A DNA stretch of 32,000 nt from Candidatus Paracaedimonas acanthamoebae (GCA_000743035.1 CP008936.1:30001-62000); one strand, 5' to 3'. Shown: positions 1-20,684, counted from the stretch's first letter. Numbers and translations: made by a program. Notes: a model not told the origin generated them from the letters alone.

Positions 1-1345
1 TATAATTAGCGCCAATTGTCCAGTAATAATAACAATCATCAAGTAAGCAATAAGAATTTAAGATAATATTCTTGCTGTTTTTTTTCTTTTTTCCAAAATG
101 TATACTACTGTAGTTTCCGCGCCAAGGTTGGGGTAGCTCTAAGAGAGGAAAATAAAGAAAAAACTGATTATTTTGACTTGTGTACTCTTTATAAGATTTC
201 TCAGCCCCTAAAGCAGTGTAACCTTGAATCCAGGTATTAGGGGTATTCAATAAAGGAGAAATCGATGGAGAAGTTGTTGTATGTTTTTGATTACTTGAAG
301 GTAATTGACTTATTTCAGTTTTTAACTTTCCTACAAAATTTTGAATAATTGTAGCTTGAGAAGGATTAATTTTTACAATTCTACCTTTAAATGTATCGCT
401 TACATACATTAAGCCTTCTGGGGTATATTCAATCCCATAAGGCATATTAAATAAATCTATTCCAAGCCCATTACCACCTATACTTTTTTGAGGTTCTAAA
501 TCATGAGATAGAATTGTAATCTTTCCTGTATGAGCATCAGTGATCGCAACCTTATCTTTATAAATACTAATAGAAGTTGGCCATAAGTAGCCATTTTTTC
601 TCCATTCTATTTTTCCCGTTTCTTTTAAAAGCTTACCTTGAAGATTGAACATAAAAATTTTTCTTTCTTGAAGGCTTGTAACATAGATTGATTTTTCATT
701 TTTAGAAAAAGAGACACCATGCGCATTTTTAATAGGGAGAGACCACGCCTTTTTACCTCTATCAAAAAGTACAAGTTTGCTCGCATCATAATCAGCAATC
801 GCACAGATCTTTCCATCTAGCGTTACATCAATATTTTCTGGCCCAAGTAAATCGATGTCTTCATAACGGTCTTTAAGAATTAAGTTAAAAAATTTATCAA
901 ATTCTAATAGTAAAATATCTTTACCTGTATAATTTGCCACATATAAGGTTTTAGTTGTCTTATTGTATTTGATGCCCGTAGGATTCCAGACTTTGATTTT
1001 TTTAGGAGGTAAAAGTATTCTTGCCTTACCATTTTCTATATTTAATAAAAAAATATTCTGATAATTACAAAATACCAAATGCTTTTCATCAATTTGTGTT
1101 AAAGAGCAAATTACGCTTGGGTCTATCATTTTTCCTTGCTCATCAACCATTGGAATTGATTCTAAATGAGGTGAAATATTTAAGTTTTGGGGGTCGAACT
1201 TTTTATCTTCGAAATAGCAATAAGTATAAGAAATAAAGGTTGCTAGAAAAGCTAGTAAACTTACCTTAAGTAGATTTTTATTTTTTAATAATTTTATTAT
1301 TAAATGTAGTTTGCTTAAAATTGACTGCTTAATTAGAAGTATCAT
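1..1345 (-). CDS. Exported NHL-repeat beta-propeller protein, paralogue of 2411..4102. Partial: the 3' end runs off the left window edge, about 448 codons visible.
   Basis: Absent from the supplied ORF track because there is no stop inside the window. I checked every minus-strand codon in the frame set by ATG 1345..1343. There is no stop down to position 2, and an in-frame stop lies just upstream at 1363..1361. The translation starts MILLIKQSILSKLHLIIKLLKNKNLLKVSLLAFLATFISYTYC (signal-like). It continues NLNISPHLESIPMVDEQGKMIDPSVICSLTQIDEKHLVFCNYQ, GPENIDVTLDGKICAIADYDASKLVLFD, LWPTSISIYKDKVAITDAHTGKITILS and FNMPYGIEYTPEGLMYVSDTFKGRIVKINP. These segments are colinear with the 564-aa neighbour. 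Confidence 0.8.
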   Translation of the reverse strand, partial: MILLIKQSILSKLHLIIKLLKNKNLLKVSLLAFLATFISYTYCYFEDKKFDPQNLNISPHLESIPMVDEQGKMIDPSVICSLTQIDEKHLVFCNYQNIFLLNIENGKARILLPPKKIKVWNPTGIKYNKTTKTLYVANYTGKDILLLEFDKFFNLILKDRYEDIDLLGPENIDVTLDGKICAIADYDASKLVLFDRGKKAWSLPIKNAHGVSFSKNEKSIYVTSLQERKIFMFNLQGKLLKETGKIEWRKNGYLWPTSISIYKDKVAITDAHTGKITILSHDLEPQKSIGGNGLGIDLFNMPYGIEYTPEGLMYVSDTFKGRIVKINPSQATIIQNFVGKLKTEISQLPSSNQKHTTTSPSISPLLNTPNTWIQGYTALGAEKSYKEYTSQNNQFFLYFPLLELPQPWRGNYSSIHFGKKKKNSKNIILNSYCLLDDCYYYWTIGANY

Positions 1346-1375
1346 TGCGAAGAAAATTCTCTATTTTTTCAAGAA

Positions 1376-2386
1376 CTATAAAGCCCGCTCTACCATCTCC
1401 ATAATCTTTAATTTTTTTTGTGGTGAAGTATAGTCAGAAGTATTCCAGAGGCGGTTCCAACCATTTTCAATTGTTTCAACCCATTCTGTCTCGGAACGTA
1501 AAGTAATACATGGTTTTTGATGAAAATAGGCTTCTTTTTGTAAGCCTCCTGAATCTGTATAGACAACCGCAGAAAAGTAAAGAAGACTGTGCATATCTTG
1601 ATAGTTTAAAGGATCAATAACTCTAATATGATTGAGGATATCATTTTCAATAAAGTTCTTAGTCCTAGGATGAATAGGCCATACTATTTGTAAATTATTT
1701 ATTTTACTGTGTTCTATGACATAATTTAACATCGTTTTAAGATGCTCTTTATTTGCTGTGTTTTCCTGGCGATGAAGAGTTAAGACAGCATATGCTTCTT
1801 CTTTAATCTCGAGTTTAGTAATGATGTCTTGCGAGATTTTTTCTATTGCAAACAGTGTGGCGTCATACATGACGTCACCTGCGTGGAATACATTGAAAGT
1901 AATTCCCTCATTCTTAAGATTTTCTATGGCTTTAAAAGTGGGACAGAATAAAAGAGAACTAACGTGATCGGATAATATCCGATTAATTTCTTCCGGCATA
2001 AAAGAGTTATACGAACGGAGGCCGGCTTCAACATGTGCAATAGGAATATTTAGCTTTGATGCAGCTAAAGCTCCCGCAAGCGTTGAATTTGTATCACCAT
2101 AAATTAAGATAAGTTGAGGAGCCTCTTTAAGCATAATTTGTTCAAGTTGCTCAAGCATACGACCTGTCATAGCGCCATGAGGCAAGCTATGGATATCCAG
2201 ATAATATTTAGGTTGCGGTATACTTAATTGTTCAAAAAAAATATCCGACATATTTGAATCAAAATGTTGCCCAGTATGAACAATGATTTCTTCGATCCAA
2301 GAATGATTTTTAAAAAGCCGTGAAAGAACAGCCGCCTTCACAAATTGTGGTCTTGCACCAATAATCGTTAGTATTTTTTTCTTCAT
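1376..2386 (-). CDS. wecB: UDP-N-acetylglucosamine 2-epimerase (non-hydrolysing), WecB/MnaA family
   Basis: 336-aa ORF with ATG start. Family motifs: MKKKILTIIGARPQFVKAAVL, HTGQHFD, IYGDTNSTLAGALAA, HVEAGLRS, TDSGGLQKEA, RSETEWVETIENGWN. The C-terminus is shorter than the ~360-380 aa relatives I recall. Confidence 0.85.
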   Translation of the reverse strand: MKKKILTIIGARPQFVKAAVLSRLFKNHSWIEEIIVHTGQHFDSNMSDIFFEQLSIPQPKYYLDIHSLPHGAMTGRMLEQLEQIMLKEAPQLILIYGDTNSTLAGALAASKLNIPIAHVEAGLRSYNSFMPEEINRILSDHVSSLLFCPTFKAIENLKNEGITFNVFHAGDVMYDATLFAIEKISQDIITKLEIKEEAYAVLTLHRQENTANKEHLKTMLNYVIEHSKINNLQIVWPIHPRTKNFIENDILNHIRVIDPLNYQDMHSLLYFSAVVYTDSGGLQKEAYFHQKPCITLRSETEWVETIENGWNRLWNTSDYTSPQKKLKIMEMVERAL

Positions 2387-2410
2387 TGGTAATGGCTGTT
2401 TTCCATTAAG

Positions 2411-4102
2411 TTAGTAGTCAGCATTTAAAATCATACTAGCAAGGCAATTTTCAACCAAATATAGATGTGTTTCTTTCTCAATTTTGTTGAGATAGTTTTT
2501 AGCTGCCATACGCATCTTATTGATATCCTGACCCGCTAAGATGAGGTTGTCATGAAAGATTTTTCCTTCTTTACTTTCAAAAGACAACTTAAGCCTTTCT
2601 GCAAAGTTAAATTTACCATACAGATGTTCAGCCATTGCATCCAAGGGATTGTCACCTCTTTGGATAGCTTTAATAAAAGGAATGATCTTTTTCATGGCTT
2701 CTTGAGTGAGATGCTTAAAAGAGACTTTATCTCCACGACTAGATATTAATTCTTTATCATTTATCCAAAAATCAACACCAATTCTTATAGGACACACAAT
2801 ACCTTGATAGATAACAAGCCATTCTATTACTTGAGGTGAACCTAAAATTGTAAATTTATCGTAATCTTTTCCAAACGTCCAATAATATTGAGCAGAAGAC
2901 ATTAAATGATAAGAGCCAAATAAATTTAAATATCTTGTTGCATTTGAGTTATTTAATTTATTTTGTTCACTGTATAAACCATTAAGATACCCGTTCCAAT
3001 TTTTTGGAATATTAAGATTTGGTATATGTAGGTGAAATTTATTAATTCTATTTTTAAATACATCAAAATTATATTTTATTCCCAAAGGAGGGTATCCATT
3101 AATCCATGATGCTTGTGGTTGTTTTTTAATAAGTTCTTGATTTTGTTTATTGGGGGATTGAGCTTCGAATATTTCTAAAATAATTTCTTGAGTAGGATCT
3201 ATTTTTAGAATTCTTCCTTTAAATGTATCAGTAACATATAGTAGTCCTTCTGAGGTATATTCAATTCCATAAGGCATATTGAATAAACTAATACCTAGAC
3301 CATTACCACCTATACTATTTAGGGCCTCTAATGAAGGAGAGATATTCGTAATTTTTCCAGTTCTCGCATCACTAATACTAATTTTATCATGGTATACATT
3401 AATAGATGTAGGCCATAAGTATCCATCCTGCTTCCACCCATCTTGGCCGTGCTCTTTTAAAAGAGTGCCATTTAAATCAAATTTGTATATTTTTGGCGGA
3501 ATAAGACCTGAAACATAAATAGTATTTTCGTCTTTGGAAAGAGTTATCCCATGGGCTCTTCCTACAGGACGAGCCCAAATTTTACCTTTTTCATTGAACA
3601 TCAAAGCTGAACTATTATCATAATCAGCAACGACAAAAAATTTTCCATCTTTTGAAACATCAATGTTTTCTGGGCCTACTAATTCATTATCTTTATATTG
3701 TTTGACAAAAATTAAGTTAAAATCTTTATCAAATCGAAATAATAGAACATCTTTTCCTAAATAATTGGCTATATACAGAGTGTTATTTTTTTTACAAAAT
3801 TTTAAACCAGTGGGGTACCAAGCTTCAATATTTGAAGGTGGCGGGAGTATTTTCGCTTTCCCATTTTTTAAATTAAGCAGAAAGACCTGTTGATAATTAC
3901 AAAAAATTAAATGCTCTTCATCAATCTGGGTCAATGAACAAATTATACCTGGATCTATCAGCTTTCCTTGTGAGTCAGTAATTAGGATGGTTTTTAAATA
4001 TGGAGAAATATTTAAATTTTTTGGTTCATGACTGCTGTAGGTTTTTTGAAAAAAAACAAATATTAGAAAAATAAAAAGATAGTATTTTTTAATTGAAAAC
4101 AT
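2411..4102 (-). CDS. Exported NHL-repeat beta-propeller protein with an unassigned ~170-aa C-terminal domain
   Basis: The ORF opens at GTG 4105, but ATG 4102 has AAGGA about 9 nt upstream. Hydrophobic signal: MFSIKKYYLFIFLIFVFFQKTYSS. Repeated NHL-like blades: LYIANYLGKDVLLFRFD, GPENIDVSKDGKFFVVADYDNSSALMF, AHGITLSKDENTIYVSGLIPPKIYKFD, LWPTSINVYHDKISISDARTGKITNI, PYGIEYTSEGLLYVTDTFKGRILKID. The C-terminal part (ILGSPQVIEWLVIYQGI...IQRGDNPLDAMAEHLYGKFNFAERL...) recurs in the 626-aa protein at 15943..17823. Confidence 0.8.
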   Translation of the reverse strand: MFSIKKYYLFIFLIFVFFQKTYSSHEPKNLNISPYLKTILITDSQGKLIDPGIICSLTQIDEEHLIFCNYQQVFLLNLKNGKAKILPPPSNIEAWYPTGLKFCKKNNTLYIANYLGKDVLLFRFDKDFNLIFVKQYKDNELVGPENIDVSKDGKFFVVADYDNSSALMFNEKGKIWARPVGRAHGITLSKDENTIYVSGLIPPKIYKFDLNGTLLKEHGQDGWKQDGYLWPTSINVYHDKISISDARTGKITNISPSLEALNSIGGNGLGISLFNMPYGIEYTSEGLLYVTDTFKGRILKIDPTQEIILEIFEAQSPNKQNQELIKKQPQASWINGYPPLGIKYNFDVFKNRINKFHLHIPNLNIPKNWNGYLNGLYSEQNKLNNSNATRYLNLFGSYHLMSSAQYYWTFGKDYDKFTILGSPQVIEWLVIYQGIVCPIRIGVDFWINDKELISSRGDKVSFKHLTQEAMKKIIPFIKAIQRGDNPLDAMAEHLYGKFNFAERLKLSFESKEGKIFHDNLILAGQDINKMRMAAKNYLNKIEKETHLYLVENCLASMILNADY

Positions 4103-4134
4103 CACATAGCATCCTTTAATTAGGCATTTATCTT

Positions 4135-7100
4135 TTATTTACTTTTTAGTAATTTAATTTTTCTGATTAGTATTCGATTTTGACCAGCGGCTTTTAAAAC
4201 TTTAACACGTATATACTTGGTAGGTTTTGCATCTTTTAAATTTATAATATGATGTTTTCCTTCAAGTTGGACTGATTGGGAATGTAAAATAACATTATTA
4301 TCGTCTAAGAATTCAATTAAATATTCTCTTCCAAAGTTCTTTTCATTTTCCCAAGTGATCTCAATTACTTTTAATAAAGTTTCTTTAGGCATCGCAATTG
4401 TAAAAAATTGAGGAAAAGGAGCATCTTCTTTAGTTGCTGCATAAGCTGTCCCATTCTTATTTTTAAAAATGAGATCAAATCCAAAACCATCATAGGTTGG
4501 AGAAGAGTCTAAAATATTTGAAGTTGAAGCAATATCTATAAGCTGTTCTTCTTTTTTATTCGTGTTATTTTTAAAAAACCACATATAAACTTTATCCCTT
4601 ATTTGCAAAAGAAAGCTTTTTTTAGTTTTTCTTTTATCAAGTCTAAATGAAAGATCAATCATTTTCTTTTCTATAATAGGAGAAAGAGACTTCTGGTTAA
4701 GCTCATAATAATACTGGTGTTTTTCAGCTTGCTGACCTGTAAACCAATCTTGATATTTTTTTGAAATCTCAGCCAATTGCTCAACATGATACTTTTGATA
4801 ATCTGGGCCTACAAACCATCCCATGTTTTGAGGTTGAATATTAAAATGCACTTCTTTCCATTGCTGATCACCATTACAATTCCAAATACCGCTTGGAATG
4901 GGCTCAAACTTTAAGACATTCCCTTCATTAATTGATTGTGTTTTAATTATAAATTTTCCTGGAGAAACATCTTTATACCGAATGATTAAACGATGTGTGG
5001 GAACTTCGAAATATTCATCAAAAGAAAAATTAGGTAGTGTCATAAACATAAATACATTATGTAATGTGCCGCCTTTTGGAGCTTTTTGGCGCTTTTTATA
5101 TCCGTTTTCAAAGAAACGTACATTTTTTCCATCAGAAGTTTTGGCTTGACCCCAATCATTTCCTGAAAGTTTACAAGGACCTTTAAAATCTCTCCCAAGT
5201 AAAGTGTCTATTTCAATATGAGAAGCTTCAGAGGTTGTGGGGTTAATTAAAATTACCTCATAAATTTCAGGGGAAGCTTCCCCACTTATCCAATCAATTT
5301 GAAATAAAAATTCTTTTTTTGGGTTTGTGTCATAGCGAAGCCAATACCCATTGTCATATTTATCATAAACATGGTGTAAAGTTTTTAATCCGACCTTTTT
5401 AAGATTTTTAAGAAATTCTTCTTTAACATATTTTGAAACTTCGTCAAAAGTAACAAGTGATGAGAGGTGAGCATTAAGAATATGCACAGCTTGGGGGACC
5501 TCTTCAAAAAAAGCTAAATTATTAAGGTAAGAGGCTTTTATCCCTCCTTGTGACAGGGGAATATTATAAGCTCTACATGCTCGTGTTAAAAGGTCTAAAA
5601 AGTTAATACCTGGTATAATAATTTGTTCATCAAGAGCTTTCCTAAAAGCTTTTATTACATAGCTTTGTCCAAAGGAAGATTGCCATGGAGCTTCAGTAAC
5701 GACGTCATTATAAGTATTAGGGAATTGGAAATACCAAACAAGTGCATCATCTTTAGGTTTTGCATTTTCTGTTAACCATTGGTATGCAGGCTTCCGTTTT
5801 ATATCTTGTATTTTTAAATTTTTAAGCCAAACAGAACCATCATAATAATATTTATTAGTGTGCAGTTCTTCAAAATCCATATGCTGGCTCATATCAAAAT
5901 AGCTTGGGTCTATGGCTTGTTGAGCCGTAATAAAAGGAGAGTACACAGGTTTGCCAATTTTACCTTTTCCATTCCATGCCCCACTTTTAAGAAAAGTGGT
6001 ATTTTTATCTTGAGAATGATAACGAACGACCCCTTTTTTATCCAACGTATATACAGGTAGAATAGTCGTTTGCTTTGGAAGATCATGTTTATGAGTTCTA
6101 ATAAGCTTACATTTAAAATTAGGTTTGTGGAGGTTGAGATAGGACAGAGCTTTATTTACCCATAATTCAAGAGCAGGTAAATCTTTTGCTAAGATTTCAA
6201 GATAGACGAGGTGTTTCTCGGCATAAGATTGACCTACCCAATATCCAAGATCTTCAGGTCTTACGGGGATTTTCCATGTGCGCCATTGATTAGAGCCCTT
6301 GAGTAAGAGATCGCTATTACGAAGTGTCTGAAATACAGCACCAGGCGCTATCGAACGTAATTGAACGTTAATATTGGCTTTTTCAATATCTTTATATTTA
6401 ATAATCAGTTCATAATGTTGAGTTCTCAAATTATCTATTTTCCCTGGTAAATCCAGATAAAAATAGGTGTGTGGGGCGTGATTAAGTGTCCCATCGTTTT
6501 CTTCTTGAGAACTTGCAGGCCAAACTGATTTAAGGCGACGTGTAGGTTTCTGGTCGATTGTTTCGGGCTGGCCCCAATCTATCCCACTAATCTTATCTTT
6601 CTGATTTGCATCATTCTCTGCCCCAACAACAATAATTGTTTCTTCGCCACTTAAAGGATCACGTAATGTAATATTTCCAATTGGTATTTGAGAAAGTTGA
6701 TATCCATAAGGATTATTGAATCTAAAACAGAGATTTTCTTTATTTGGGTTAAGATCATAACGTAACCAGTAACCCGAATCATAAAGAGGAAGCCAACGTT
6801 CTAAAGTTTCTAATCCTTTTTTGTAATAAGTTTCATATTTTTTATCTTTCGTGATGTCTGAAAGCTTTTTCAAAGCTAAAAGCGCTCTCATATGACCATT
6901 TAAGATATGTGTTGGATTTTCTTTTGGCTCGGGGACCTCTTCAAACCAAATATCCTCTCCTTGGACAAAGGCAAGGCCATTTTCTGAAAGAGGGAGCATT
7001 AAAACTTCAGCGGCTTTCTTGGCAAGTTCTAAATGTTCCTTATTGCCGTCAAGCTCATAGGAAGCGAGAAGAGCTTCAATGCCAACTGCCTGCGTAAAAG

Positions 7101-7482
7101 CACTATACCAGGGGGCCTTAATATATGAATCGTTATATGTGTTATCAAAATCAATAAGCCATACGCCTAAATTGTTTTTATATGTTTTTAGATTATCTGC
7201 TAACCATTTTACGCAAGCTTGAAATTTTCTATGATCTTTTTGTACAAGGGACGTTGTATCATAGGTTAAAACTCCCGCATAATGCAGAGCATAAACGGCT
7301 ACGCCACTAGGATGGTAAACTTGTCCTTTGATGCCTTGAATTTCTTGAACAGGAATACCATTATTGTCAGTCATATGTTTCGCTTGTGCAACATCTGTTT
7401 GTGCTGGTAATGCTAAGCAAATTTGAAATGATAATATAAGACTAATACAAAGTAACAAGAACTTGCTAATAATTTTATGCAT
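4135..7482 (-). CDS. Exported multidomain protein: two tandem D-glucuronyl C5-epimerase-like modules, each with a large beta-rich insert, plus a C-terminal discoidin (F5/8 type C)-like domain
   Basis: 1115-aa ORF with ATG start. Signal peptide MHKIISKFLLLCISLILSFQICLALPAQTDVAQA. Module 1 motifs: APWYSAFTQAVGIEALL, IWFEEVP..THILNGHMRALLAL, LPLYDSGYWLRYDL, SYAEKHLVYLEIL. Module 2 motifs: APWQSSFGQSYVIKAF, AFFEEVPQAVHILNAHLSSL, YDNGYWLRYDT, DYQKYHVEQLAEI. C-terminus: FFTIAMPKETLLKVIEITWENEKNFGREYLIEFLDD...YIRVKVLKAAGQNRILIRKIKLL. Confidence 0.8.
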   Translation of the reverse strand: MHKIISKFLLLCISLILSFQICLALPAQTDVAQAKHMTDNNGIPVQEIQGIKGQVYHPSGVAVYALHYAGVLTYDTTSLVQKDHRKFQACVKWLADNLKTYKNNLGVWLIDFDNTYNDSYIKAPWYSAFTQAVGIEALLASYELDGNKEHLELAKKAAEVLMLPLSENGLAFVQGEDIWFEEVPEPKENPTHILNGHMRALLALKKLSDITKDKKYETYYKKGLETLERWLPLYDSGYWLRYDLNPNKENLCFRFNNPYGYQLSQIPIGNITLRDPLSGEETIIVVGAENDANQKDKISGIDWGQPETIDQKPTRRLKSVWPASSQEENDGTLNHAPHTYFYLDLPGKIDNLRTQHYELIIKYKDIEKANINVQLRSIAPGAVFQTLRNSDLLLKGSNQWRTWKIPVRPEDLGYWVGQSYAEKHLVYLEILAKDLPALELWVNKALSYLNLHKPNFKCKLIRTHKHDLPKQTTILPVYTLDKKGVVRYHSQDKNTTFLKSGAWNGKGKIGKPVYSPFITAQQAIDPSYFDMSQHMDFEELHTNKYYYDGSVWLKNLKIQDIKRKPAYQWLTENAKPKDDALVWYFQFPNTYNDVVTEAPWQSSFGQSYVIKAFRKALDEQIIIPGINFLDLLTRACRAYNIPLSQGGIKASYLNNLAFFEEVPQAVHILNAHLSSLVTFDEVSKYVKEEFLKNLKKVGLKTLHHVYDKYDNGYWLRYDTNPKKEFLFQIDWISGEASPEIYEVILINPTTSEASHIEIDTLLGRDFKGPCKLSGNDWGQAKTSDGKNVRFFENGYKKRQKAPKGGTLHNVFMFMTLPNFSFDEYFEVPTHRLIIRYKDVSPGKFIIKTQSINEGNVLKFEPIPSGIWNCNGDQQWKEVHFNIQPQNMGWFVGPDYQKYHVEQLAEISKKYQDWFTGQQAEKHQYYYELNQKSLSPIIEKKMIDLSFRLDKRKTKKSFLLQIRDKVYMWFFKNNTNKKEEQLIDIASTSNILDSSPTYDGFGFDLIFKNKNGTAYAATKEDAPFPQFFTIAMPKETLLKVIEITWENEKNFGREYLIEFLDDNNVILHSQSVQLEGKHHIINLKDAKPTKYIRVKVLKAAGQNRILIRKIKLLKSK

Positions 7483-7492
7483 TCTCTCTCAT

Positions 7493-9382
7493 TCAGTTTA
7501 AGCTTGGTTTGAAAGTGCTATACCACATTTGGAGAGAAAGCGCACCCCATAAATCTCGGCTAAAACCTTGGTCATTATTTAACAAATTTTCAACATATTT
7601 CTTCTGGAAAAGGTTCTCAGGATTATTATTGAGTAGAGTATCGTGCAAGAAACCTTTGAGTTCATTTTTAGCCCATACATCTAAGGGAACAGGAAAACCT
7701 TTTTTATCAGTTCTATTTAATACTTTTGGCGGAAGATATTCTGAAATTGCTTTCGTAAAGATGTATTTCATCTTACCATCTTTAATCTTGAGCGTATCAG
7801 GAATACTAAACGCATATTCAACAAGTCGATAATCTAGTAAGGGGACTCGTGATTCAATACTATTTGCCATGCTGACCCGATCCTCAACATGCAATAACGA
7901 TTGTAAATGGGTTTTTAGATCAAAATACATGTTTTGACTAAAAAGAGAATTTTCAAAGCGGTTACCATAAATCAAGGAAAATTCTTCATAAATTCTTTCT
8001 TGGTTAAAGGACAAATCGCATGCCAAAAAATTGGAGGATTGTTTGAAGCGGTTAATAAGATGAAAATATCTGGCGCTGTTTTCTTCAAATAGACCTTTAG
8101 ACCAATAAGAACGCAACATAGGGACGTAACTTGATAGAACGCTTAAATTATTTTCTAAGTCGCCTAGTTTATAAGAAGTAACATTAGAAGTCGTTGAAGG
8201 AAGTATCGCTTTTTTAATTGCTTGTTCTAAGGCAAAAATAAGGTATCGAGCATACCCACCAAATATCTCATCTCCTCCTTGCCCACCAACAACAACTCTT
8301 AAGTGCTTAGAAACTTCTTGGGAAATTAAATATTGAGGAAAAACTCCTGGGCCCGCAGCTGGTTCATCCATGTGCCAAATGATCTTTTGTAAATGTTGCT
8401 GAAATTCAGAAGCAGAGATGTATTTAACAATATGTTCTGCATCAGTTACTTTCGCAACTTCTCTCGCGTATTCTGTTTCATCGTAAGCAAGACCTTCTTG
8501 GAAAGCACCCGTAAAAACTTTTATATGCGCTTGAGGAAAGTGAGAACGCATAAGAGAAGTGACAGCTGAAGAATCTAGCCCACCAGAGAGATAAGCTCCT
8601 ACAGGTACATCTGCAGTCATATGAATATTTACGGATTGTGAAATTAATTCTTTTAGTTCTTCGGTGATGACTTCTTCGCTTTTATGATGAACTTGTTCTT
8701 GGGGAACATCCCAATATTGATTTATCTGTAAACCTTTATCAGGTGAAAAAATAAGATTATAGCCAGGTTCAAGTTTTTTGATATTTTCAAAAAGGGTTTT
8801 ATTCCCCAGCGTAAATTGAAAAGTTAAATATTCTTCTAAAGCAGGTTTGCAAACAATGGGGGCAATAATTTTTGTTGCTAAAATAGCTTTAATTTCTGAG
8901 GCAAAAACAAAGTTTTTGCCATCATCATAGTAATAAAAAGGTTTGATGCCTAAGCGATCTCTTGAGCAGAAAAGTAAATTTTTTCTTTGGTCATATAAAG
9001 CAAAGGCCCACATTCCATTGAAATAATTTACGCAATTTTCTCCCCAATGGAGGTATGCCTTTAATATAACTTCGGTGTCAGAATTGGTTTTAAAAGAGTA
9101 TCCTTCTTGAATGAGTAAAGCTCTGATTTCTTTATAATTAAAAATACATCCATTAAAAATAATTTGATTTCCGGAGGCGTGGCAAGCCATGGGTTGTTGA
9201 GCATGACCGGGATCAATAATAGATAAAATAACATGACCAAGACCAAGAGTTTTATCTAATGTAATAAAGGTACCTTGTCCATCTGGTCCCCGATAAGTGA
9301 TAGTTTGAAGCATTTTCTTTAAGGTTAAAAGAATGTCCTCATCTGAAAAATCTTTAGAATAAATCCCAACAATACCACACAT
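7493..9382 (-). CDS. asnB: Asparagine synthetase B-type glutamine-dependent amidotransferase (glycan-cluster paralogue)
   Basis: 629 aa. The N-terminal MCGIVGIY gives the Cys2 nucleophile of class II glutamine amidotransferases. SGGLDSS is the PP-loop ATP pyrophosphatase motif. Length and layout are typical of AsnB. The ATG lies 1 nt after the stop of the upstream glycosyltransferase gene. Confidence 0.85.
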   Translation of the reverse strand: MCGIVGIYSKDFSDEDILLTLKKMLQTITYRGPDGQGTFITLDKTLGLGHVILSIIDPGHAQQPMACHASGNQIIFNGCIFNYKEIRALLIQEGYSFKTNSDTEVILKAYLHWGENCVNYFNGMWAFALYDQRKNLLFCSRDRLGIKPFYYYDDGKNFVFASEIKAILATKIIAPIVCKPALEEYLTFQFTLGNKTLFENIKKLEPGYNLIFSPDKGLQINQYWDVPQEQVHHKSEEVITEELKELISQSVNIHMTADVPVGAYLSGGLDSSAVTSLMRSHFPQAHIKVFTGAFQEGLAYDETEYAREVAKVTDAEHIVKYISASEFQQHLQKIIWHMDEPAAGPGVFPQYLISQEVSKHLRVVVGGQGGDEIFGGYARYLIFALEQAIKKAILPSTTSNVTSYKLGDLENNLSVLSSYVPMLRSYWSKGLFEENSARYFHLINRFKQSSNFLACDLSFNQERIYEEFSLIYGNRFENSLFSQNMYFDLKTHLQSLLHVEDRVSMANSIESRVPLLDYRLVEYAFSIPDTLKIKDGKMKYIFTKAISEYLPPKVLNRTDKKGFPVPLDVWAKNELKGFLHDTLLNNNPENLFQKKYVENLLNNDQGFSRDLWGALSLQMWYSTFKPSLN

Positions 9383-9383
9383 A

Positions 9384-10598
9384 TTATTTCTCTAATTCTG
9401 TATATAAATTTAAAAGTTTCTTTTCTTGTGCTGGCCAACCAATCTCAATTTCTGCTTGTAAAAAATTTTCAAGGGGAAAATAGTCGTTAGCTTTAAGCTC
9501 TAACATATTTTTAATGGCCTCAGCTATGCTTAATGGAGTTAACATAGAATGAGTTTTTCCAATTTTGTAACCATCTACAAATTTTACAAGTTCGGGAAGA
9601 TTAGAGGCACAAATTGGAACTCTGGCATGAATATATTCAAACAACTTATTAGGTGTACAATAATGATTATTTAAAATTTTATCTCCTAAATAAGGGATAA
9701 TACCTAAATCTGCTTTTTTTAGTATGCTGATCAATTCCGATTGAAGAACCCAATCGTGAAAAATTACATTACTCAAGTTATTCTTGGTAACTATTTCTTG
9801 AAGATTTTGTTTTAAAGGGCCTTCTCCAAGAAACAATAAAGTAGCTTGATCTTTTAAATATTCAAAAGCCAAAGTTAAATTTTCTAGATTCCGTTCTTTT
9901 CCAAGTGAACCTTGAAATAAAACGAGATTTTTTGTTTTTTTTGCTGAAAGGAATAAAGGATTGATGGCATCGAAACCTGATTGCTTTTGAAAAGGGGAGA
10001 TTCCGTAGGAATTTAAAATGGTAATAATGTTAGAATTAGTAATTCTTTTGCTTAAAATAGTTTTAATACTATCATTGACGGCAATAATGGCATCAACTCT
10101 TTTACACAATTTAACTTCTAATTTGTTCCATGAATTTGCCTCAATCCGTAGAGGAAATTGTTCTCCCCAAAGCTCATGAGAATCATATAGAACTTTTTTA
10201 ACCTTAAGTCGGTGCCTTAAGATATATGCTGCTTTTAAAGTTGAAAGATCATGAGCGTGTATATAATCAAATTCTTCACATGGTGTATTTTTAATCAAAT
10301 ATTTGGTTGTCTTGTAAAATTCAATATAACGCCTGTAAATAAATTTTATAAAATTTGCGACCGGTGTAGCTAATAAAGAACAGATACATGTAAAAATTTT
10401 TTGTTTTTTAGAAGGTATTTGATTAAATGCTTGATGAATAATGCGGATAGAGGGGCTCACTTCTGCTTTAAAGTCACCTTGGATAGGAACAGAAACGAGA
10501 GTAACAGAATATTTTTTAGCATCCAGGGCATTTAGCTGTGCAATAATTCTTCGATCTAATGAAAAACTATGAGCCGAAAGAACTAAGATTTTTTTCAT
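9384..10598 (-). CDS. Glycosyltransferase, GT4 (GT-B fold) family
   Basis: 404 aa. N-terminal KILVLSAHSFSLDRRIIAQLNAL, then IHAHDLSTLKAAYIL...VLYDSHELW, and a C-terminal WbuB-like motif YCTPNKLFEYIHARVPICASNLPEL. Paralogous to the neighbouring 508-aa ORF. Confidence 0.75.
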   Translation of the reverse strand: MKKILVLSAHSFSLDRRIIAQLNALDAKKYSVTLVSVPIQGDFKAEVSPSIRIIHQAFNQIPSKKQKIFTCICSLLATPVANFIKFIYRRYIEFYKTTKYLIKNTPCEEFDYIHAHDLSTLKAAYILRHRLKVKKVLYDSHELWGEQFPLRIEANSWNKLEVKLCKRVDAIIAVNDSIKTILSKRITNSNIITILNSYGISPFQKQSGFDAINPLFLSAKKTKNLVLFQGSLGKERNLENLTLAFEYLKDQATLLFLGEGPLKQNLQEIVTKNNLSNVIFHDWVLQSELISILKKADLGIIPYLGDKILNNHYCTPNKLFEYIHARVPICASNLPELVKFVDGYKIGKTHSMLTPLSIAEAIKNMLELKANDYFPLENFLQAEIEIGWPAQEKKLLNLYTELEK

Positions 10599-12093
10599 TT
10601 TGAGCGAAAAGTGTTTGAATAATGTTAATAAAAATAGGAGATTCTTGCTCCCAAGAAAATTTATTTTTCTGTTGCCTTAGAGCTTCTTTAGCCTGCTTTT
10701 TGTCAAGCCGAATCATTTTTTCTAAATTTCTACTAATACTTTTTGCTGAGCTAAAATCAGCTTCAATAGCGCACTCCTGAAATTCTGAGAGCATTTTTTT
10801 TACTTGAAAAAGATGCTTATTATAAAGAATAGGAAGTTCTGCTTGTATAAATTCAAACATTTTATTTGGAGTGCAATAGGTTGTGTTAAAATCACAAGCA
10901 GGATAAGGAATAATCCCAAAATCAGCTGAGGAAGAAATTCGAATCAGATCTTCTTGAGAAACGGCCTCTAAGAGATGGATGTTCTTATTACCACGAATCA
11001 TCGTTTCAATTTCTTTTTTAAAAAGAGGATCATATATCCCTAAAATAACAAGATGAAAATCATTCCTCTTTAGAGCTAGTACACCTCTGATCATTTCTTT
11101 AATATTTCGATTCTTAAGAACACCCCCCTGGTAAAGCCCAATCGTGTCATTTTTCGAAATATTTAACATTTCCCGAAGGACATTGCTTTTGTAGGTTGGA
11201 GACATTCTAGAGACATTATGTATAATGTAAGGGAGAGAGATATTATACTTTTTTTTCATTAACTCAGCAAAAGTGTCATTAATTGTAATAACGGCCGAGC
11301 ATTTTTTAATGTATTCTTGCTCTACTTCCATCATTATTTTTTTTTGTAAAGAAGAAAAAGCTTTTTGCTCATAATAAAACTCATGAGCATCATAAAGAAA
11401 AGGAACCCCTTTTTCTTCAGCAAGTAAAGCGCCTGCTTTGAGAGATGGTAAATCATAGGAAATAACAAGGTTAGCTTTATATGGTTTAGCTGTGTTGTAA
11501 AATACTAGATCAAAAGGGAGAGGCATATAAATTCCCTTGGGTCTATACTTTAAAGCTAAATGAAAATTGTACAATAAACTATTTAAACGTGTAAATACTT
11601 TCTTCTTATACAGATAATTCACAGGTAAGAGTATACTTCTTTTTAATAAATTCTTTACCGTTACTCTATATTTTTTTGCGAAAGTCCTTATAGAAGGGGT
11701 GCTCTTGTCTTGCTCAGAAAAGGGAATTGTTCTTAAGCGAAAATTTAAACGATGAATTGTATTTTCTATGTAATAATACCGCTTATAAAATGACCAATAT
11801 GCAATACAATCAGGGATAATTTGTGATAATCCAAAACGATGAATATAGAAAAGATCATGAACCTTTTCTACGGAACTTTCACTGCTTTTGGCTAAGCAAA
11901 CAAGCAGAACTTGCATCCCTAGGGTATTGAGAGTTTCAATTTGTTGTGCAACTCTTCGATCAAGATCTTGATCATGACAAATCATAACAACTTTTTTATG
12001 GTTAGTTTGTAGATTCCACTCTTCAAGAATCTGTTTTGGAACTAATGAGTTAATAATTTCTTGTTTATATAATTGAAAGGCATTAGTGGTCAT
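10567..12093 (-). CDS. Glycosyltransferase, GT4 (GT-B fold) family, with an enlarged N-terminal half
   Basis: 508 aa. Motifs VVMICHDQDLDRRVAQQIETLNTLG, FLYDAHEFYYEQ and YCTPNKMFEFIQAELPILYN match the 404-aa paralogue in the same order. Its 3' end overlaps the next start by 32 nt. Confidence 0.75.
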   Translation of the reverse strand: MTTNAFQLYKQEIINSLVPKQILEEWNLQTNHKKVVMICHDQDLDRRVAQQIETLNTLGMQVLLVCLAKSSESSVEKVHDLFYIHRFGLSQIIPDCIAYWSFYKRYYYIENTIHRLNFRLRTIPFSEQDKSTPSIRTFAKKYRVTVKNLLKRSILLPVNYLYKKKVFTRLNSLLYNFHLALKYRPKGIYMPLPFDLVFYNTAKPYKANLVISYDLPSLKAGALLAEEKGVPFLYDAHEFYYEQKAFSSLQKKIMMEVEQEYIKKCSAVITINDTFAELMKKKYNISLPYIIHNVSRMSPTYKSNVLREMLNISKNDTIGLYQGGVLKNRNIKEMIRGVLALKRNDFHLVILGIYDPLFKKEIETMIRGNKNIHLLEAVSQEDLIRISSSADFGIIPYPACDFNTTYCTPNKMFEFIQAELPILYNKHLFQVKKMLSEFQECAIEADFSSAKSISRNLEKMIRLDKKQAKEALRQQKNKFSWEQESPIFINIIQTLFAQNEKNLSSFGS

Positions 12094-12095
12094 AT

Positions 12096-13184
12096 TTATT
12101 TTTGCCCCTCTAATTCTTTAAAAAGTTTACTAAGTATATGAAAAATATAGTTTTTTTTTCTCATATTGTAACTTTCTAAATTAATTTCTTGGTTGTAAAT
12201 AAACCATTTCGGTATTTTTGTCCAATCATCTTTATTTGCACGAATCCGCGGGAGTAAAAACTGAATTCCCTGAGACCATTTTTGAGCAATATATTTGGGT
12301 TCTTCTTCAAGAAGGGTGGTTTGATTTAAATTTGGCCTACTCTGTTTGGCAACAGGAACAGATTCGTAAGGATATATCTCAAGCTCTCTTGTGATATTAT
12401 TATTTCTTGGTTTTTTATTCTTAGAAAATATGGCGATGCATTCATTACAATTTGGGCGATCTTGAATATGACTAACCTCTAAATCAAAATAAACCTTAGA
12501 GAGAATATCTAGCATTTTACCTTCAAGGGCATTGCCTTTTGTTAACTTGCTTGAACAGAGGGGGCAGCATGCATGAGGCCATGTTTTTAGGACGCCAAGC
12601 ATCGCACATATATCGTCATGAATAATTTGTGAATATGGTAATTGATCGCCAGAATAAATTATTTTCTCGCACTGAAAATTATCCTTTTGCAGTGCTAATA
12701 ACTTTTTAACATCAAAAGATCTTTGATGGTGATTGATATGAAAAATATGACCACAGTCACAACATTGGGTTTTATAGGCATCAAGGTTTTCCATAAAAGG
12801 CACGGTAATAATTACATAGTCTTTAGCAACTCTTATAAGTTCGCTAATGACAGTTTCATACTCATTTTCATAGATATGTTCGATAACATCATTGACCATA
12901 ACAAGATCATAAGAATTGTCTGCAAACGGAAGCGCTGAAAGATTTGCAACAACTTTGTTACAACCCAAATTTTTTATAGCTTGATAGCTCCAATCAAGCG
13001 CCGTTACATGATATTGAGGTGGTATTTTTTCGGTAATTAAACCATTCCCACATCCTGCATCTAAAATAGTTCTCACGCCCTCAGGAATGTTAGCAACAAT
13101 ATCAAAAAATACGTTTTTTTGATAAGAAGCTATTTCTGTATCCCATAAAGCCTCTTGTTGGTAATAAGCAATTTTATTTGACAT
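12096..13184 (-). CDS. Class I SAM-dependent methyltransferase with a Cys-rich insertion and a C-terminal extension
   Basis: SAM-binding motif I ILDAGCGNGLITEKI and post-I/II DLVMVNDVIEHI. Cys clusters: CCDCGH, CCPLC, CNEC. The ORF extends to GTG 13235. I prefer ATG 13184 (MSNKIAYYQQ), which overlaps the wzt stop by 11 nt (ATGTCAAATAA). Confidence 0.75.
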   Translation of the reverse strand: MSNKIAYYQQEALWDTEIASYQKNVFFDIVANIPEGVRTILDAGCGNGLITEKIPPQYHVTALDWSYQAIKNLGCNKVVANLSALPFADNSYDLVMVNDVIEHIYENEYETVISELIRVAKDYVIITVPFMENLDAYKTQCCDCGHIFHINHHQRSFDVKKLLALQKDNFQCEKIIYSGDQLPYSQIIHDDICAMLGVLKTWPHACCPLCSSKLTKGNALEGKMLDILSKVYFDLEVSHIQDRPNCNECIAIFSKNKKPRNNNITRELEIYPYESVPVAKQSRPNLNQTTLLEEEPKYIAQKWSQGIQFLLPRIRANKDDWTKIPKWFIYNQEINLESYNMRKKNYIFHILSKLFKELEGQK

Positions 13185-15018
13185 GAACGCTGGCCTTGAA
13201 AGGTTGAATACAAATACCTCGTTCAAATTTCTCACTTAAGGGATCAAATATTTGAAAAAAGTACGATCTATCAATCAAGTGATAAGCTTCTGATTCTAGC
13301 CGGTCATATCTTAAATTTTTAAAAATAGCTACGCTTGCTACGTAATGACCATTCCCTAAAAACAATTTATCTATAGCAAAAGAAAATACCCCAGAATTCT
13401 CTATCAAGGCTTGATTAAGATCTGAGGTATTCGAGAGGAATTGAGCAATACATTTTCCATCGTTACTGTAAATGCAAAAGACAAATACCGGGTTCATGAC
13501 AGGAGAATTTGCAGTATAATGAAGCTCTATTGTAAGAGATTTTCCAGAGATTAAAACCCTTTTATCTTCATTGTCTTGGATCAATTTAACTTGTGTTAAC
13601 TCTATTTCTTTTGAGCCTTTTTCATATTTGGAAGAGTCTTGTAATACTGTCGATTCGGTAGAAGAAGAGAGTGTAGGAGATTCTATAATGCCATTTTCAT
13701 CATTTTCTTCTGGAGAGTTTAGAACTTCATTGGTTTGCACCAAGCTAAAAGGAAAAATTATTTTATGAGTATCGTTTTTTGTTGGAGTTAATTTTCCAAC
13801 TTGCTGGTAAGCATTCAAATTTTCCATAAATATTTCAATGGAACCCACGACATTGGAGGAATAAGTAACTTCTAAAGAAAGTTCATTCTTTGATGTTAAA
13901 TAATTTTCAGGCAATAGGAATTGAAATGGAGCATGCTGAAATTTAGAATTTCTATCATAAACGGCCCTAAAGGAGCCAAATTCATCCTTCTCACGCTCGC
14001 CCCAATCCATATCCTTTTTTGAATAAAGAATATATGCAGGTAAAGATGTATCATCATCATAAGTAGAGCCTGGGATTAACTCATTAATGATTTTATCATT
14101 ATGGAGAATACTGATCTTATAAATTCTTATAGGTTGATCATTCAATGGCTGCCCATCACCATAAATACGGAACAATATAGGTTCATCTATAGAGGTAGAT
14201 TTCATGGGTGAAATATGACTACGGGAAATCTTCATTTCTTTAGATTTTAACCTGAGTTCTTCTTTTTTATGAGAATAGCTAGCATATTCTTTCACAATGG
14301 AAAGAGGATCACCATCTGCAATAATTTGGCCATTTTTGATCCAAATACATCTGTTACATAAATGTTGGATACTGCTCATATCATGAGAGACAAAAATAAC
14401 CGTAATATTATTATTTTCTGTGAGGTTCTTCATGCGTTCAATGCATTTACCCGTAAAATAAGCATCTCCAGCACTTAAAACCTCATCAACCACCATAATT
14501 TCAGGTTCTATCGCAGTTGTTACTGAGAATGCTAACCTCGCGAACATTCCAGAAGAATAAGTCTTTATGGGATGATATATAAAATCTTCAAGTTCAGAAA
14601 AATCAATGATATCCGCTCTTTTTTGTTCTATTTCCTTTTCTGGTATTCCGTGAATGGCAAGATAAGTGTAAATATTGTCGTATCCTGTCATATCGGAATG
14701 AAACCCAGTCCCTAATTCTAGAAAGCTTTGAATTTTTCCTTCAATGCGAACGACCCCCGTTGAAGGGTGTGCGTTTCCTGAGATTATTTTTAGAAGGGTA
14801 CTTTTTCCCGCGCCATTTTCTCCAATAATTCCTAATCTCTCGCCTTTTTTAACAAATAAATTTATATCATTAAGGGCATAGACTTCTCTCTTGGAAATGT
14901 GTTTCCAAGGCATTAGCTTACCCAGGCCGCTTAAATCAATGAATTTATCACTATTATTTTCATAAAGAGTGTATTTCTTGCTTAACTTTTCAATATAAAG
15001 AGAAAATTGATTAGACAT
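13174..15018 (-). CDS. wzt: Polysaccharide ABC exporter ATP-binding subunit (Wzt/TagH type) with a ~380-aa C-terminal extension of two extra domains
   Basis: Walker A GENGAGKST, signature YSSGMFARLAFS, Walker B IMVVDEVLSAGD, H-loop VSHD. The C-terminal ~140 aa (VKLIQDNEDKRVLISGKSLTIELHY...LGNGHYVASVAIF) resemble the Wzt glycan-binding beta-sandwich. The ORF opens at TTG 15075. ATG 15018 (MSNQFSLYIEKLSKKY) overlaps the wzm stop as ATGTCTAA. Confidence 0.85.
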   Translation of the reverse strand: MSNQFSLYIEKLSKKYTLYENNSDKFIDLSGLGKLMPWKHISKREVYALNDINLFVKKGERLGIIGENGAGKSTLLKIISGNAHPSTGVVRIEGKIQSFLELGTGFHSDMTGYDNIYTYLAIHGIPEKEIEQKRADIIDFSELEDFIYHPIKTYSSGMFARLAFSVTTAIEPEIMVVDEVLSAGDAYFTGKCIERMKNLTENNNITVIFVSHDMSSIQHLCNRCIWIKNGQIIADGDPLSIVKEYASYSHKKEELRLKSKEMKISRSHISPMKSTSIDEPILFRIYGDGQPLNDQPIRIYKISILHNDKIINELIPGSTYDDDTSLPAYILYSKKDMDWGEREKDEFGSFRAVYDRNSKFQHAPFQFLLPENYLTSKNELSLEVTYSSNVVGSIEIFMENLNAYQQVGKLTPTKNDTHKIIFPFSLVQTNEVLNSPEENDENGIIESPTLSSSTESTVLQDSSKYEKGSKEIELTQVKLIQDNEDKRVLISGKSLTIELHYTANSPVMNPVFVFCIYSNDGKCIAQFLSNTSDLNQALIENSGVFSFAIDKLFLGNGHYVASVAIFKNLRYDRLESEAYHLIDRSYFFQIFDPLSEKFERGICIQPFKASVHVK

Positions 15019-15802
15019 GGTCAAGAAGTTCTTTTTTAAATTTGTTAAAAAGGTATATGCCGAATAAAAGGACAAGACTACTCAAGCAAGCTAATTTTAT
15101 TAAATTCATAAATAAGATATTATTATAAATTAATAAATCTTGATAAAAAGAGATAAACCAACTTAGAGGATTATAGTTATTAATTGCCATCTTATTCCCT
15201 ACACTTGAAGCTCTGTAAGCAATAGGACTGATAAGCATGAGCAATAAGAGAAGTGGTTGAATAAAATTAACAATATCTTTAAAGAAAATAGATAAGGGAG
15301 AAAAGATTAATGCAAGTCCAATATTAAATATAATTTGAAAAGTATATACGACAAAAACCAGTAATATACTAAAAGAAAAAGATTTTAAATTAAAAATCAG
15401 GCAAGCAAATATTAAAAACAAAAAAGCTAAAGTATAAGTAACATAGGAGACTAAAACCGATTTTATAGGAATTAATGATATATCAAAAGAGCAGTTTTTA
15501 ATAAGGGAAAGATTAGACATGATTGAAACTGAAGATGTAGAAACTGCAGACGAAAAACTCAAGAATGGTAATAGGCCGGCTAATAGAATAAAAATGTATT
15601 CCAAAGAAGAAGTGCCAATGATATTTCGGCTGAATAAATGGGTATAAACAAAATAATAAGCTAATACTAAAATACAAGGTTGGATTAAAACCCACAATAA
15701 TCCAAGCACAGAACCTGCGTATTGTTGCCTAATGTCAATATTTACAAGTGAGTATAAAATACGTACGTGTTTAAGAAAATTGTTTAAATAATTCTTGTTC
15801 AT
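15011..15802 (-). CDS. wzm: Polysaccharide ABC exporter permease (ABC-2 type, Wzm/TagG)
   Basis: About 263 aa and highly hydrophobic, with about six predicted membrane spans. It sits immediately upstream of wzt and is translationally coupled to it. The ORF opens at TTG 15814; ATG 15802 (MNKNYLNNF) is the likelier start. Confidence 0.8.
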   Translation of the reverse strand: MNKNYLNNFLKHVRILYSLVNIDIRQQYAGSVLGLLWVLIQPCILVLAYYFVYTHLFSRNIIGTSSLEYIFILLAGLLPFLSFSSAVSTSSVSIMSNLSLIKNCSFDISLIPIKSVLVSYVTYTLAFLFLIFACLIFNLKSFSFSILLVFVVYTFQIIFNIGLALIFSPLSIFFKDIVNFIQPLLLLLMLISPIAYRASSVGNKMAINNYNPLSWFISFYQDLLIYNNILFMNLIKLACLSSLVLLFGIYLFNKFKKELLDHV

Positions 15803-15942
15803 ACAATAAGCCAATCAAAACATTGTCGTGTGGAATAAGAGGTAACCCATTTAAGTATAGCAACCTAAATAAATCTTATAACCAAACAAGACCTAAAAAG
15901 CTATATGATAATTAGGGTTTTCTATGAAGACAAAATTATATG

Positions 15943-17823: not shown

Positions 17824-17857
17824 TGCCTTTTAAAATTTTGAATGAGCGCTACATAAG

Positions 17858-17886
17858 TGGATAGTGAAAAAGGAGTGAATAGTCAA
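17858..17886 (-). promoter_or_regulatory. Candidate sigma70-type promoter for the glycan operon
   Basis: The minus strand reads TTGACT-N17-TATCCA, about 35 nt upstream of ATG 17823. The -10 is weak because its last base is A. Confidence 0.25.
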
Positions 17887-17990
17887 GAATTTCGAGCTAA
17901 AAGCTATAGAAAAAGCGCGGAGAGAGATTTGTTGATAACGGCTTTATCTCACTGAAATTTTATGAAAATTATTTCTTCAGCTGATTTTTT

Positions 17991-19547: not shown

Positions 19548-19552
19548 GAGCT

Positions 19553-20676: not shown

Positions 20677-20684
20677 AGAAAGGA

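Follow-up and report, generated by a model that had tools for sequence, protein, structure and literature searches.

The open reading frame (ORF) at 4135..7482 on the minus strand of a 32,000-nucleotide stretch of the Candidatus Paracaedimonas acanthamoebae genome (GCA_000743035.1, CP008936.1:30001-62000; the whole stretch is called here the window) encodes a protein with two tandem modules related to the catalytic domain of GLCE, the animal D-glucuronyl C5-epimerase of heparan sulfate. Each module is interrupted by an all-beta domain lying between the equivalents of two catalytic tyrosines, and of the five catalytic residues of GLCE, four are retained in both modules at 96% or more over 70 full-length homologues, the set from which residue conservation is counted throughout. 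The ORF starts with ATG and is 1115 aa long, and its product is 100% identical to the NCBI hypothetical protein IM40_00135 of this organism, an amoeba endosymbiont. On balance, we lean towards the protein being a post-export C5-epimerase that acts at the level of the polymer on (di)acetamido-hexuronate or uronamide residues, converting them from the D-manno to the L-gulo type. The homology itself is already captured by automated annotation, many homologues being labelled 'D-glucuronyl C5-epimerase family protein' by NCBI, and neither the fold nor the chemistry is of a new kind.

Tandem GLCE-like modules and their active sites

Both modules match the Pfam family C5-epim_C (PF06662, cutoff 23.3 bits) when scanned separately, as the original prediction, made from the DNA sequence, had anticipated in describing two colinear GLCE-like modules. 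Module 1, an alpha-helical catalytic module (aa 28-467; 6082..7401, minus strand), reaches 112.9 bits (E 1.7e-32) over aa 103-246, and module 2 (aa 468-930; 4693..6081, minus strand) reaches 71 bits (E 1.2e-19) over aa ~581-719, while the whole protein scores 172.6 bits in two stretches. Both matches break off at the RYD(L/T) motif, near position ~145 of the 188 in the profile. In a sequence search of the PDB, zebrafish and human GLCE are the sole family found (E 1e-12 and 8e-11). Both modules are supported by Pfam, the GLCE alignments and residue conservation. Identity between the two is 30% across 358 aa including the inserts (E 1e-44), in agreement with the proposed duplication within a single polypeptide.

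The AlphaFold2 (AF2) model of the whole protein, built from an alignment of 70 sequences, has a mean pLDDT of 90.9 and a pTM of 0.81. Its catalytic parts are helical, both inserts are all-beta at high pLDDT, and the C-terminal domain is all-beta as well. GLCE comes out on top of the Foldseek fold search with this model, with ~166 columns aligned at an rmsd of 1.9 A.

The catalytic residues of GLCE are given as E499, Y500, N510, Y560 and Y578 in PMC13308652, which cites Debarnot 2019, and Y500, Y560 and Y578 have been called critical for activity (PMC12561193). Their equivalents fall in the motifs WFEEVP (E181, E182, V183), HILNGH (N195), RYDL (Y242, D243) and SYAEKH (Y420, H424) of module 1, and FFEEVP (E660, E661, V662), HILNAH (N670), RYDT (Y717, D718) and DYQKYH (Y895) of module 2. 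The equivalent of E499 is kept in 69/70 homologues in module 1 (E182) and in 70/70 in module 2 (E661), with the preceding Glu conserved too; that of N510, aligned with the LNG motif of GLCE, in 69/70 (N195) and 70/70 (N670); that of Y560 in 69/70 (Y242) and 70/70 (Y717); and that of Y578 in 68/70 (Y420) and 70/70 (Y895). The fifth position, Y500, is occupied by V183 in module 1 (Ile in 57 homologues, Val in 10, Met in two, Leu in one) and by V662 in module 2 (Val in 67, Phe in two, Ile in one), so that the EEV noted in place of EEY in both copies, with the other two tyrosine positions kept, holds for the sequence at hand. Regarding the rest of the GLCE motif series claimed by the original prediction, the later motifs are found by Pfam and by the GLCE alignments; the first one, GIPVQEIQG... 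against GVPLSTQW... in GLCE, is aligned by phmmer but is not significant alone (-3.8 bits), and is the weakest item of the comparison.

A second family-wide change surrounds the catalytic Asn. The motif HxLN[GA]H, at 6895..6915 and 5464..5484 on the minus strand, places H192 and H197 in module 1, and H667 and H672 in module 2, on either side of this residue. The conservation of these histidines is 90% or higher, and both positions are Phe in GLCE. Two His around the Asn, together with Ile or Val for Y500, suggest an active site that has been altered and re-wired.

Since Glu, Asn and two Tyr are near-invariant in both modules, both look catalytically constrained. This bears on the possibility that a single module is catalytic and the other one a degenerate, substrate-binding or regulatory pseudo-enzyme, the protein being then a monomeric stand-in for a dimer with one active site, which would be compatible with the epimerase function preferred here. 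Several observations go in that direction: the modules are only 30% identical, module 2 has the weaker matches (Pfam E 1.2e-19 against 1.7e-32, PDB E 1.7e-4 against 1e-12), and single-module proteins of either type exist. In addition, H424 of module 1 aligns with a His of the GLCE YHTTH motif, and its counterpart in module 2 is Glu in 40/70 homologues. The four retained catalytic residues are, if anything, stricter in module 2, with 70/70 each, and a dead module is for this reason held to be improbable.

The two ends of the chain point to export and to glycan binding. The hydrophobic signal-like N-terminus (aa 1-27, MHKIISKFLLLCISLILSFQICLALPA; 7402..7482, minus strand), modelled as a helix at residues 2-19, is directly followed by the conserved QT (Q28/T29) of the mature protein. 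A hydrophobic, lipobox or anchor stretch precedes Q28/T29 in 65/70 homologues, several of them with a lipobox-like Cys, and the predicted signal peptide is thus borne out as a signal-like N-terminus by hydrophobicity and by the retention of this segment. After module 2, a low-confidence linker (aa ~941-978; 4549..4662, minus strand), with pLDDT below 50 at aa 941-959 and 966-978, is disordered in the model. It leads to a C-terminal F5/8 type C (discoidin/CBM32-like) domain (aa 994-1107; 4162..4503, minus strand), which matches F5_F8_type_C (PF00754) with 33.3 bits against a cutoff of 28.2 bits, as foreseen for a discoidin-like end. This tail is present in 55/70 homologues. The whole-protein model also retrieves CBM32, APC10 and IFT25 structures in Foldseek (target TM 0.6-0.8), matches that are assigned to the tail, since none of them was obtained with the excised insert.

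The inserted beta domain and the bacterial family

The two catalytic tyrosines Y560 and Y578 are 18 residues apart in GLCE and 178 apart in both modules (Y242 to Y420 in module 1, Y717 to Y895 in module 2). The loop between them holds insert 1 (aa 246-412; 6247..6747, minus strand), an all-beta domain, and at the equivalent place its paralogue insert 2 (aa 721-888; 4819..5322, minus strand). After removal of the inserts in silico, phmmer aligns the modules with human GLCE across the junction and up to the GLCE C-terminus, SYAEKH of module 1 and DYQKYH of module 2 then aligning with WDYHTTH of GLCE; the score of module 1 against human GLCE, 43.6 bits with the insert, becomes 51.1 bits without it. 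Modelled alone by AF2, insert 1 folds with a pLDDT of 95.1, a pTM of 0.89 and 13 strands. Deletion and isolated folding together sustain the claim of a large autonomous beta domain in the equivalent loop of both copies; an insert unable to fold by itself had been named as evidence against it.

The inserts share 25% identity (E 1e-12). Modules and inserts are alike between both copies, and therefore the insertion is older than the duplication. Insert length is nearly constant across the 70 homologues (160-171 aa), and a search with an insert profile found 84 matches among 1.84 billion representative proteins, nearly all of them with two copies; the insert is limited to this family. The excised inserts have no match in Pfam, and the structure of the insert has no Foldseek match at E<1e-3 in the PDB or BFVD. 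It is therefore neither a relocated discoidin domain or carbohydrate-binding module nor the GLCE beta-barrel by these searches, and has no recognisable carbohydrate-binding fold. A copy of the C-terminal tail was likewise rejected, as hhalign gave the insert profile a probability of 3.4% against the tail profile. Between two catalytic tyrosines there is thus a conserved domain of ~167 aa with no detectable structural relatives, which constitutes the structural novelty of the family.

The homologue search found 188 proteins, and the family comprises at least 150 clusters. The 120 listed homologues are 37-48% identical to the window protein (81% for one close relative) and mostly full length, and come from Pseudomonas, Legionella, Thauera, Azonexus, Stutzerimonas, Brevibacillus, Lutispora, Bdellovibrio and many metagenomes. 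A scan of genomes extends the family to Coxiellaceae, Berkiella, a Rickettsia endosymbiont, Hyphomicrobium, Desulfobacterota, Planctomycetota, Nitrospiraceae, Anaerolineales and Bacteroidales. The architecture called unusual by the original prediction is thus real, but is common to all these clusters rather than peculiar to this gene. Among the listed homologues, 47 of the 120 carry a C-terminal Transglut_core domain (PF01841) fused to the epimerase, in proteins of ~1400 aa, and one (P0072) combines NHL repeats and C5-epim_C.

Complete relatives with a single module are rare (P0160, P0163, P0164, P0168-P0170, P0175, P0178, P0181; loci L032-L034). Some belong to the module 1 type and others to the module 2 type; they have 464-516 aa, and keep the insert and a signal peptide of their own; one single-module relative carries a discoidin tail (638 aa). 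At locus L032, no second module was found within ~1.1 kb downstream of the module 1-type gene. A plasmid search gave no match to other single-domain bacterial PF06662 proteins, and NCBIfam has no model for the epimerase ORF or for the transglutaminase ORF described below. The double-module architecture, the family and its gene cassette are not mentioned in the literature searched, which likewise yielded no characterised homologue of the same architecture.

The glycan cassette and the proposed reaction

The gene lies in a cassette for the synthesis and export of a glycan. Comparison of the window proteins with 31 related loci by tblastn revealed the same order in ~25 of them: 2-epimerase, Wzm, Wzt (with Wzt_C), methyltransferase, GT4 glycosyltransferase, epimerase, transglutaminase, AsnB-like enzyme, and GT4 glycosyltransferase. 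This order is found in Pseudomonas, Legionella, Thauera, Hyphomicrobium, Brevibacillus, Lutispora, Desulfobacterota, Planctomycetota and others, in Gram-negative and Gram-positive hosts alike, and its recurrence in many phyla supports the link to Wzm/Wzt drawn by the original prediction. A transglutaminase-like match, fused or adjacent, lies downstream of the epimerase match in 24/31 loci, and the loci lacking it are mostly short or end near the epimerase match. An AsnB-like match is present in 25/31 loci, the other six being short or ending near the epimerase match.

All cassette genes of the window are on the minus strand. The AsnB-like glutamine-dependent amidotransferase (7493..9382; Pfam Asn_synthase and GATase_7), a candidate uronamide-forming enzyme, is followed by two GT4 glycosyltransferases (9384..10598 and 10567..12093; Pfam), conserved in the cassette, and by a methyltransferase (12096..13235; Pfam) whose order is conserved in other loci. 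Next come the ABC ATPase Wzt with its Wzt_C glycan-binding domain (13174..15075; Pfam ABC_tran and Wzt_C), the Wzm permease (15011..15814; Pfam ABC2_membrane), and an exported transglutaminase-core protein of 626 aa (15943..17823; Pfam Transglut_core, E 6e-11). Wzm, Wzt with Wzt_C and the methyltransferase adjoin one another, as befits an ABC-transporter-dependent glycan pathway of the O-polysaccharide type. On the other side of the epimerase ORF are encoded an exported NHL beta-propeller protein of 564 aa (2411..4105; Pfam NHL, with PDB matches to NHL propellers) and a non-hydrolysing UDP-GlcNAc 2-epimerase family protein of WecB/WbpI-like type (1376..2386; Pfam Epimerase_2). The latter scores 282.6 bits against TIGR00236 (cutoff 210) and is 39-54% identical to the cassette epimerase of 22 loci.

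The motifs GHCGTF, TGHVILE and LDPTY of the transglutaminase ORF form a Cys-His-Asp triad and align with the fused domains, and its N-terminus is hydrophobic. A homologue search with this ORF returned itself alone, and no PDB sequence match was obtained. Because the epimerase is fused in many homologues to a transglutaminase domain of the kind that includes the periplasmic WbmE of Bordetella, and signal peptides are present, it is placed outside the cytoplasm and on the finished polymer.

The substrate is suggested by the remaining genes of the related loci. In most of the loci whose flanks are long there are, in addition, genes for a UDP-sugar dehydrogenase, a GFO/IDH/MocA oxidoreductase, a DegT aminotransferase and a hexapeptide acetyltransferase, a set which, with the 2-epimerase, we take to be the established WbpA/B/E/D/I route to UDP-2,3-diacetamido-2,3-dideoxy-D-mannuronic acid (UDP-ManNAc3NAcA). 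NCBIfam holds no specific WbpB/D/E models to confirm the identity of this set. The substrate is probably not heparosan, polyglucuronate or plain polymannuronate, but a polymer of 2-acetamido or 2,3-diacetamido hexuronate or uronamide.

The protein would accordingly serve as an extracytoplasmic tailoring enzyme of a cell-surface polysaccharide, periplasmic in a Gram-negative host. The adjacent GT4 glycosyltransferases would build the polymer in the cytoplasm, the methyltransferase would probably cap it, and Wzm/Wzt would export it. Each module would then abstract and re-add the C5 proton of an in-chain hexuronic acid by means of the conserved Glu, Asn and two Tyr, turning D-manno residues, with ManNAcA or ManNAc3NAcA as candidates and possibly in uronamide form, into their L-gulo C5 epimers. 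The ~167-aa beta domain would probably form one wall of the substrate cleft and set specificity, the two covalently linked modules would probably replace the GLCE homodimer, and the discoidin-like tail would probably anchor the enzyme on the glycan. It may act beside a WbmE-like deamidase of transglutaminase fold, fused to it in many species, and the NHL propeller.

A number of points weigh against this assignment. At the Y500 position Tyr is found in 0/70 homologues in either module, and with this residue lost family-wide the chemistry or the handling of the carboxylate must differ from that of GLCE. The matches to GLCE, in both sequence and fold, are restricted to chain residues ~314-519 of its structure, the C-terminal helical domain; neither search matched a counterpart of the GLCE beta-barrel domain, and the GLCE-type arrangement of an N-terminal beta-hairpin and beta-barrel before the helical domain is absent. 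The window contains no uronic-acid-forming dehydrogenase and no WbpB/D/E-like genes, and for lack of such precursor genes the substrate in this organism is deduced from other species. Finally, the literature searched offers no biochemical or genetic data on any family member and no published glycan structure for any cassette-carrying organism, and where the insert lies with respect to the active site, and how the two modules meet, is presumed. A literature search on diacetamido-guluronic acid, and on C5-epimerase with transglutaminase and O-antigen, returned nothing relevant.

The first step of the proposed reaction, abstraction of the C5 proton, is common to lyases and epimerases, and the protein might instead be a polysaccharide lyase, or a bifunctional epimerase/lyase, that trims, releases or length-controls the exported polymer by beta-elimination. 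The loss of the Y500-equivalent Tyr in all homologues and the two conserved His could shift the outcome of the reaction, and two non-identical modules could split the labour. In alginate operons the epimerase has a lyase, AlgL, as its neighbour, and bifunctional enzymes are known among the AlgE proteins. Against this, both modules keep the Glu and the two acid/base Tyr used in the epimerase mechanism, the cassette already sets chain length by terminal modification and Wzt_C recognition, no lyase family was matched in Pfam, and to our knowledge no lyase exists in PF06662. We therefore regard a lyase as improbable.

Membership in PF06662 and the NCBI name would agree with a true D-glucuronyl C5-epimerase (EC 5.1.3.17) like GLCE and the Bermanella enzyme, forming L-iduronic acid in a heparosan-like or GlcA-containing polymer. 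The cassette, however, consists of GT4 glycosyltransferases and a 2-epimerase, mostly with diacetamido-mannuronate genes and without heparosan-type synthases; Y500 is not conserved, and a different beta domain is inserted in a protein that lacks the GLCE beta-barrel, all of which makes this activity quite unlikely. A role without catalysis, in which the protein would bind the exported glycan or serve as its scaffold or chaperone, and to which the CBM32-like tail, the two extra beta domains and the missing catalytic Tyr might point, is very unlikely in view of the Glu, Asn and two Tyr that stay near-invariant in both modules across phyla.

Within the preferred assignment, that of a post-export acetamido-uronate C5-epimerase, we entertain a further and doubtful idea, namely that the cassette encodes a cycle of amidation, export, epimerisation and deamidation in which the uronamide is the real substrate of the epimerase. 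The AsnB-like enzyme would turn the carboxylate of the uronic acid into a carboxamide in the cytoplasm, the exported uronamide would be the substrate of the double epimerase, and the fused or adjacent WbmE-like enzyme of transglutaminase fold would restore the acid by hydrolysing the amide. A carboxamide has a more acidic C5 proton than a carboxylate, and there is no charge to be neutralised. If true, the cycle would account for two changes seen throughout the family, the missing Y500-type Tyr and the two His gained around the catalytic Asn, and also for amidotransferase, epimerase and deamidase being so tightly linked or fused.

Widespread and transferred between phyla, the family is a candidate for the C5 epimerisation of acetamido-uronic acids within the polymer, and the fused genes suggest a tailoring machine in which epimerase and deamidase are coupled. 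Should the proposed activity be true, it would give an enzymatic origin for the L-configured (di)acetamido-hexuronic acids of bacterial surface glycans. Possible uses include the enzymatic engineering of uronic-acid polymers, heparin-like materials among them, and the study of antigenic variation in intracellular symbionts and pathogens such as Legionella, Coxiellaceae and Rickettsiales endosymbionts.

Some further features of the window concern the cassette and its surroundings. The ORFs of the methyltransferase and Wzt overlap by 62 nt, those of Wzt and Wzm by 65 nt, and those of the two GT4 genes by 32 nt; because of these overlaps and the TTG starts of Wzt and Wzm, some of these genes probably have their true start codons further downstream. 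With 379 aa, the methyltransferase is much shorter here than elsewhere: it has 379 aa in the window and 712-930 aa in other loci. Positions 1..1375 form ~1.4 kb with 70% A+T and no ORF longer than 71 aa, at a place where the precursor genes of other loci adjoin the 2-epimerase, and no degraded WbpB/D/E or dehydrogenase genes were detected in 1..1500. The C-terminal part of the NHL ORF (aa 358-564; 2411..3034) is 35% identical to aa 95-289 of the transglutaminase ORF (16957..17541; E 6e-27). This common domain, with the motifs GSP.V.EWLV and GxNPLxAMA and no family assignment, may be a docking or glycan-binding module of exported tailoring proteins. Two loci, from Lutispora (L005) and from the Rickettsia endosymbiont of Bradysia (L027), have an NHL-like gene near the epimerase and no detectable transglutaminase, and the window has both; as a tailoring partner, the NHL propeller may be an alternative or an addition.

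The G+C content of the glycan cluster (1..18000) is ~0.27-0.37, against 0.40-0.45 in 18000..28000 (0.29 in the bin 22001..23000), a region with MFS/HlyD, DEAD helicase and dnaK-dnaJ genes. Low G+C content and spread over many phyla fit a horizontal acquisition of the cassette. The genes for an MFS transporter and an HlyD-family membrane-fusion protein (17991..20584, minus strand) adjoin the cluster and are conserved with the cassette in 0/31 loci, and are for this reason probably unrelated to the glycan pathway. Two ORFs have no Pfam match (29140..30054, plus strand, 304 aa; 31159..31890, minus strand, 243 aa), and tRNA and Rfam scans of the window gave no match.

Comparison with known systems

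The experimental base for comparison is thin, with one active bacterial GLCE-type epimerase (PMC13308652) and few cases of post-export tailoring of O-antigen type. That enzyme, from Bermanella marisrubri RED65 (Raedts et al. 2013), is active on O-desulfated heparin and is reported to share the GLCE mechanism (PMC13308652). This paper of June 2026 still names the Bermanella marisrubri homologue as the sole bacterial member with shown activity, just as the original prediction had stated for a single-domain marine-bacterium homologue. Like the protein described here it is a bacterial PF06662 protein, and by its description it differs in having a single module; it is listed at 448 aa in a 2011 census of prokaryotic candidates that holds nothing longer than 737 aa (PMC3068255).

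The double protein resembles GLCE in the C-terminal alpha-helical C5-epim_C domain, in the order of the motifs and in the equivalents of E499, N510, Y560 and Y578. GLCE acts on the polymer rather than on a nucleotide sugar, and the same is predicted for the double protein. Unlike GLCE, which is described as a dimer (PMC13308652), it has tandem modules in one chain and the ~167-aa beta domain between the Y560 and Y578 equivalents. It also lacks the beta-barrel, replaces Y500 by Ile or Val and the Phe residues flanking N510 by His, bears a discoidin tail, belongs to a bacterial host, and probably acts on acetamido-uronate instead of GlcA.

The closest parallel for the cassette is the wbm system of Bordetella bronchiseptica. 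Its O antigen is an ABC-transporter-dependent, capped homopolymer of 2,3-diacetamido-hexuronic acid, partly in uronamide form, and the system includes AsnB-like amidotransferases (PMC2615507). WbmE, a protein of transglutaminase fold experimentally located in the periplasm, deamidates the completed O chains and was described as the first case of post-export O-antigen tailoring (PMC2615507). The gene order wbmC(AsnB)-wbmD-wbmE(TGase) had led to the guess that WbmD was a double epimerase, which was discarded, as neither the homologue searches, made with the window protein and with the Alcaligenaceae member P0106, nor the genome scan found a Bordetella homologue; the literature search found no paper on WbmD function. 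The cassette of the window shares with the wbm system Wzm/Wzt, the AsnB-like enzyme and a Transglut_core gene with a Cys-His-Asp triad. The transglutaminase ORF (15943..17823) has the core domain, the triad and the export signal of a WbmE-like protein, and its His-to-Asp spacing of 15 equals that of H201/D216 in WbmE (PMC2615507), a likeness at the level of motifs. If true, the amide cycle would also answer the Bordetella puzzle of a polymer that is amidated and, after export, deamidated.

AlgG and AlgE, the epimerases of alginate producers, are right-handed beta-helix proteins. The double protein has no Pfam match to this beta-helix family and its catalytic parts are modelled as helical, which sets it apart from the mannuronan C5-epimerases. 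The likeness is functional, and King et al. have drawn the alginate analogy for periplasmic modification of polysaccharides (PMC2615507). As proposed here, a homopolymer of D-manno uronic acid would be made first and then epimerised at C5 as a polymer outside the cytoplasm, so that the logic of alginate would be performed with the fold of the heparan-sulfate enzyme, an independent GLCE-fold route to the chemistry that alginate producers carry out with beta-helix enzymes.

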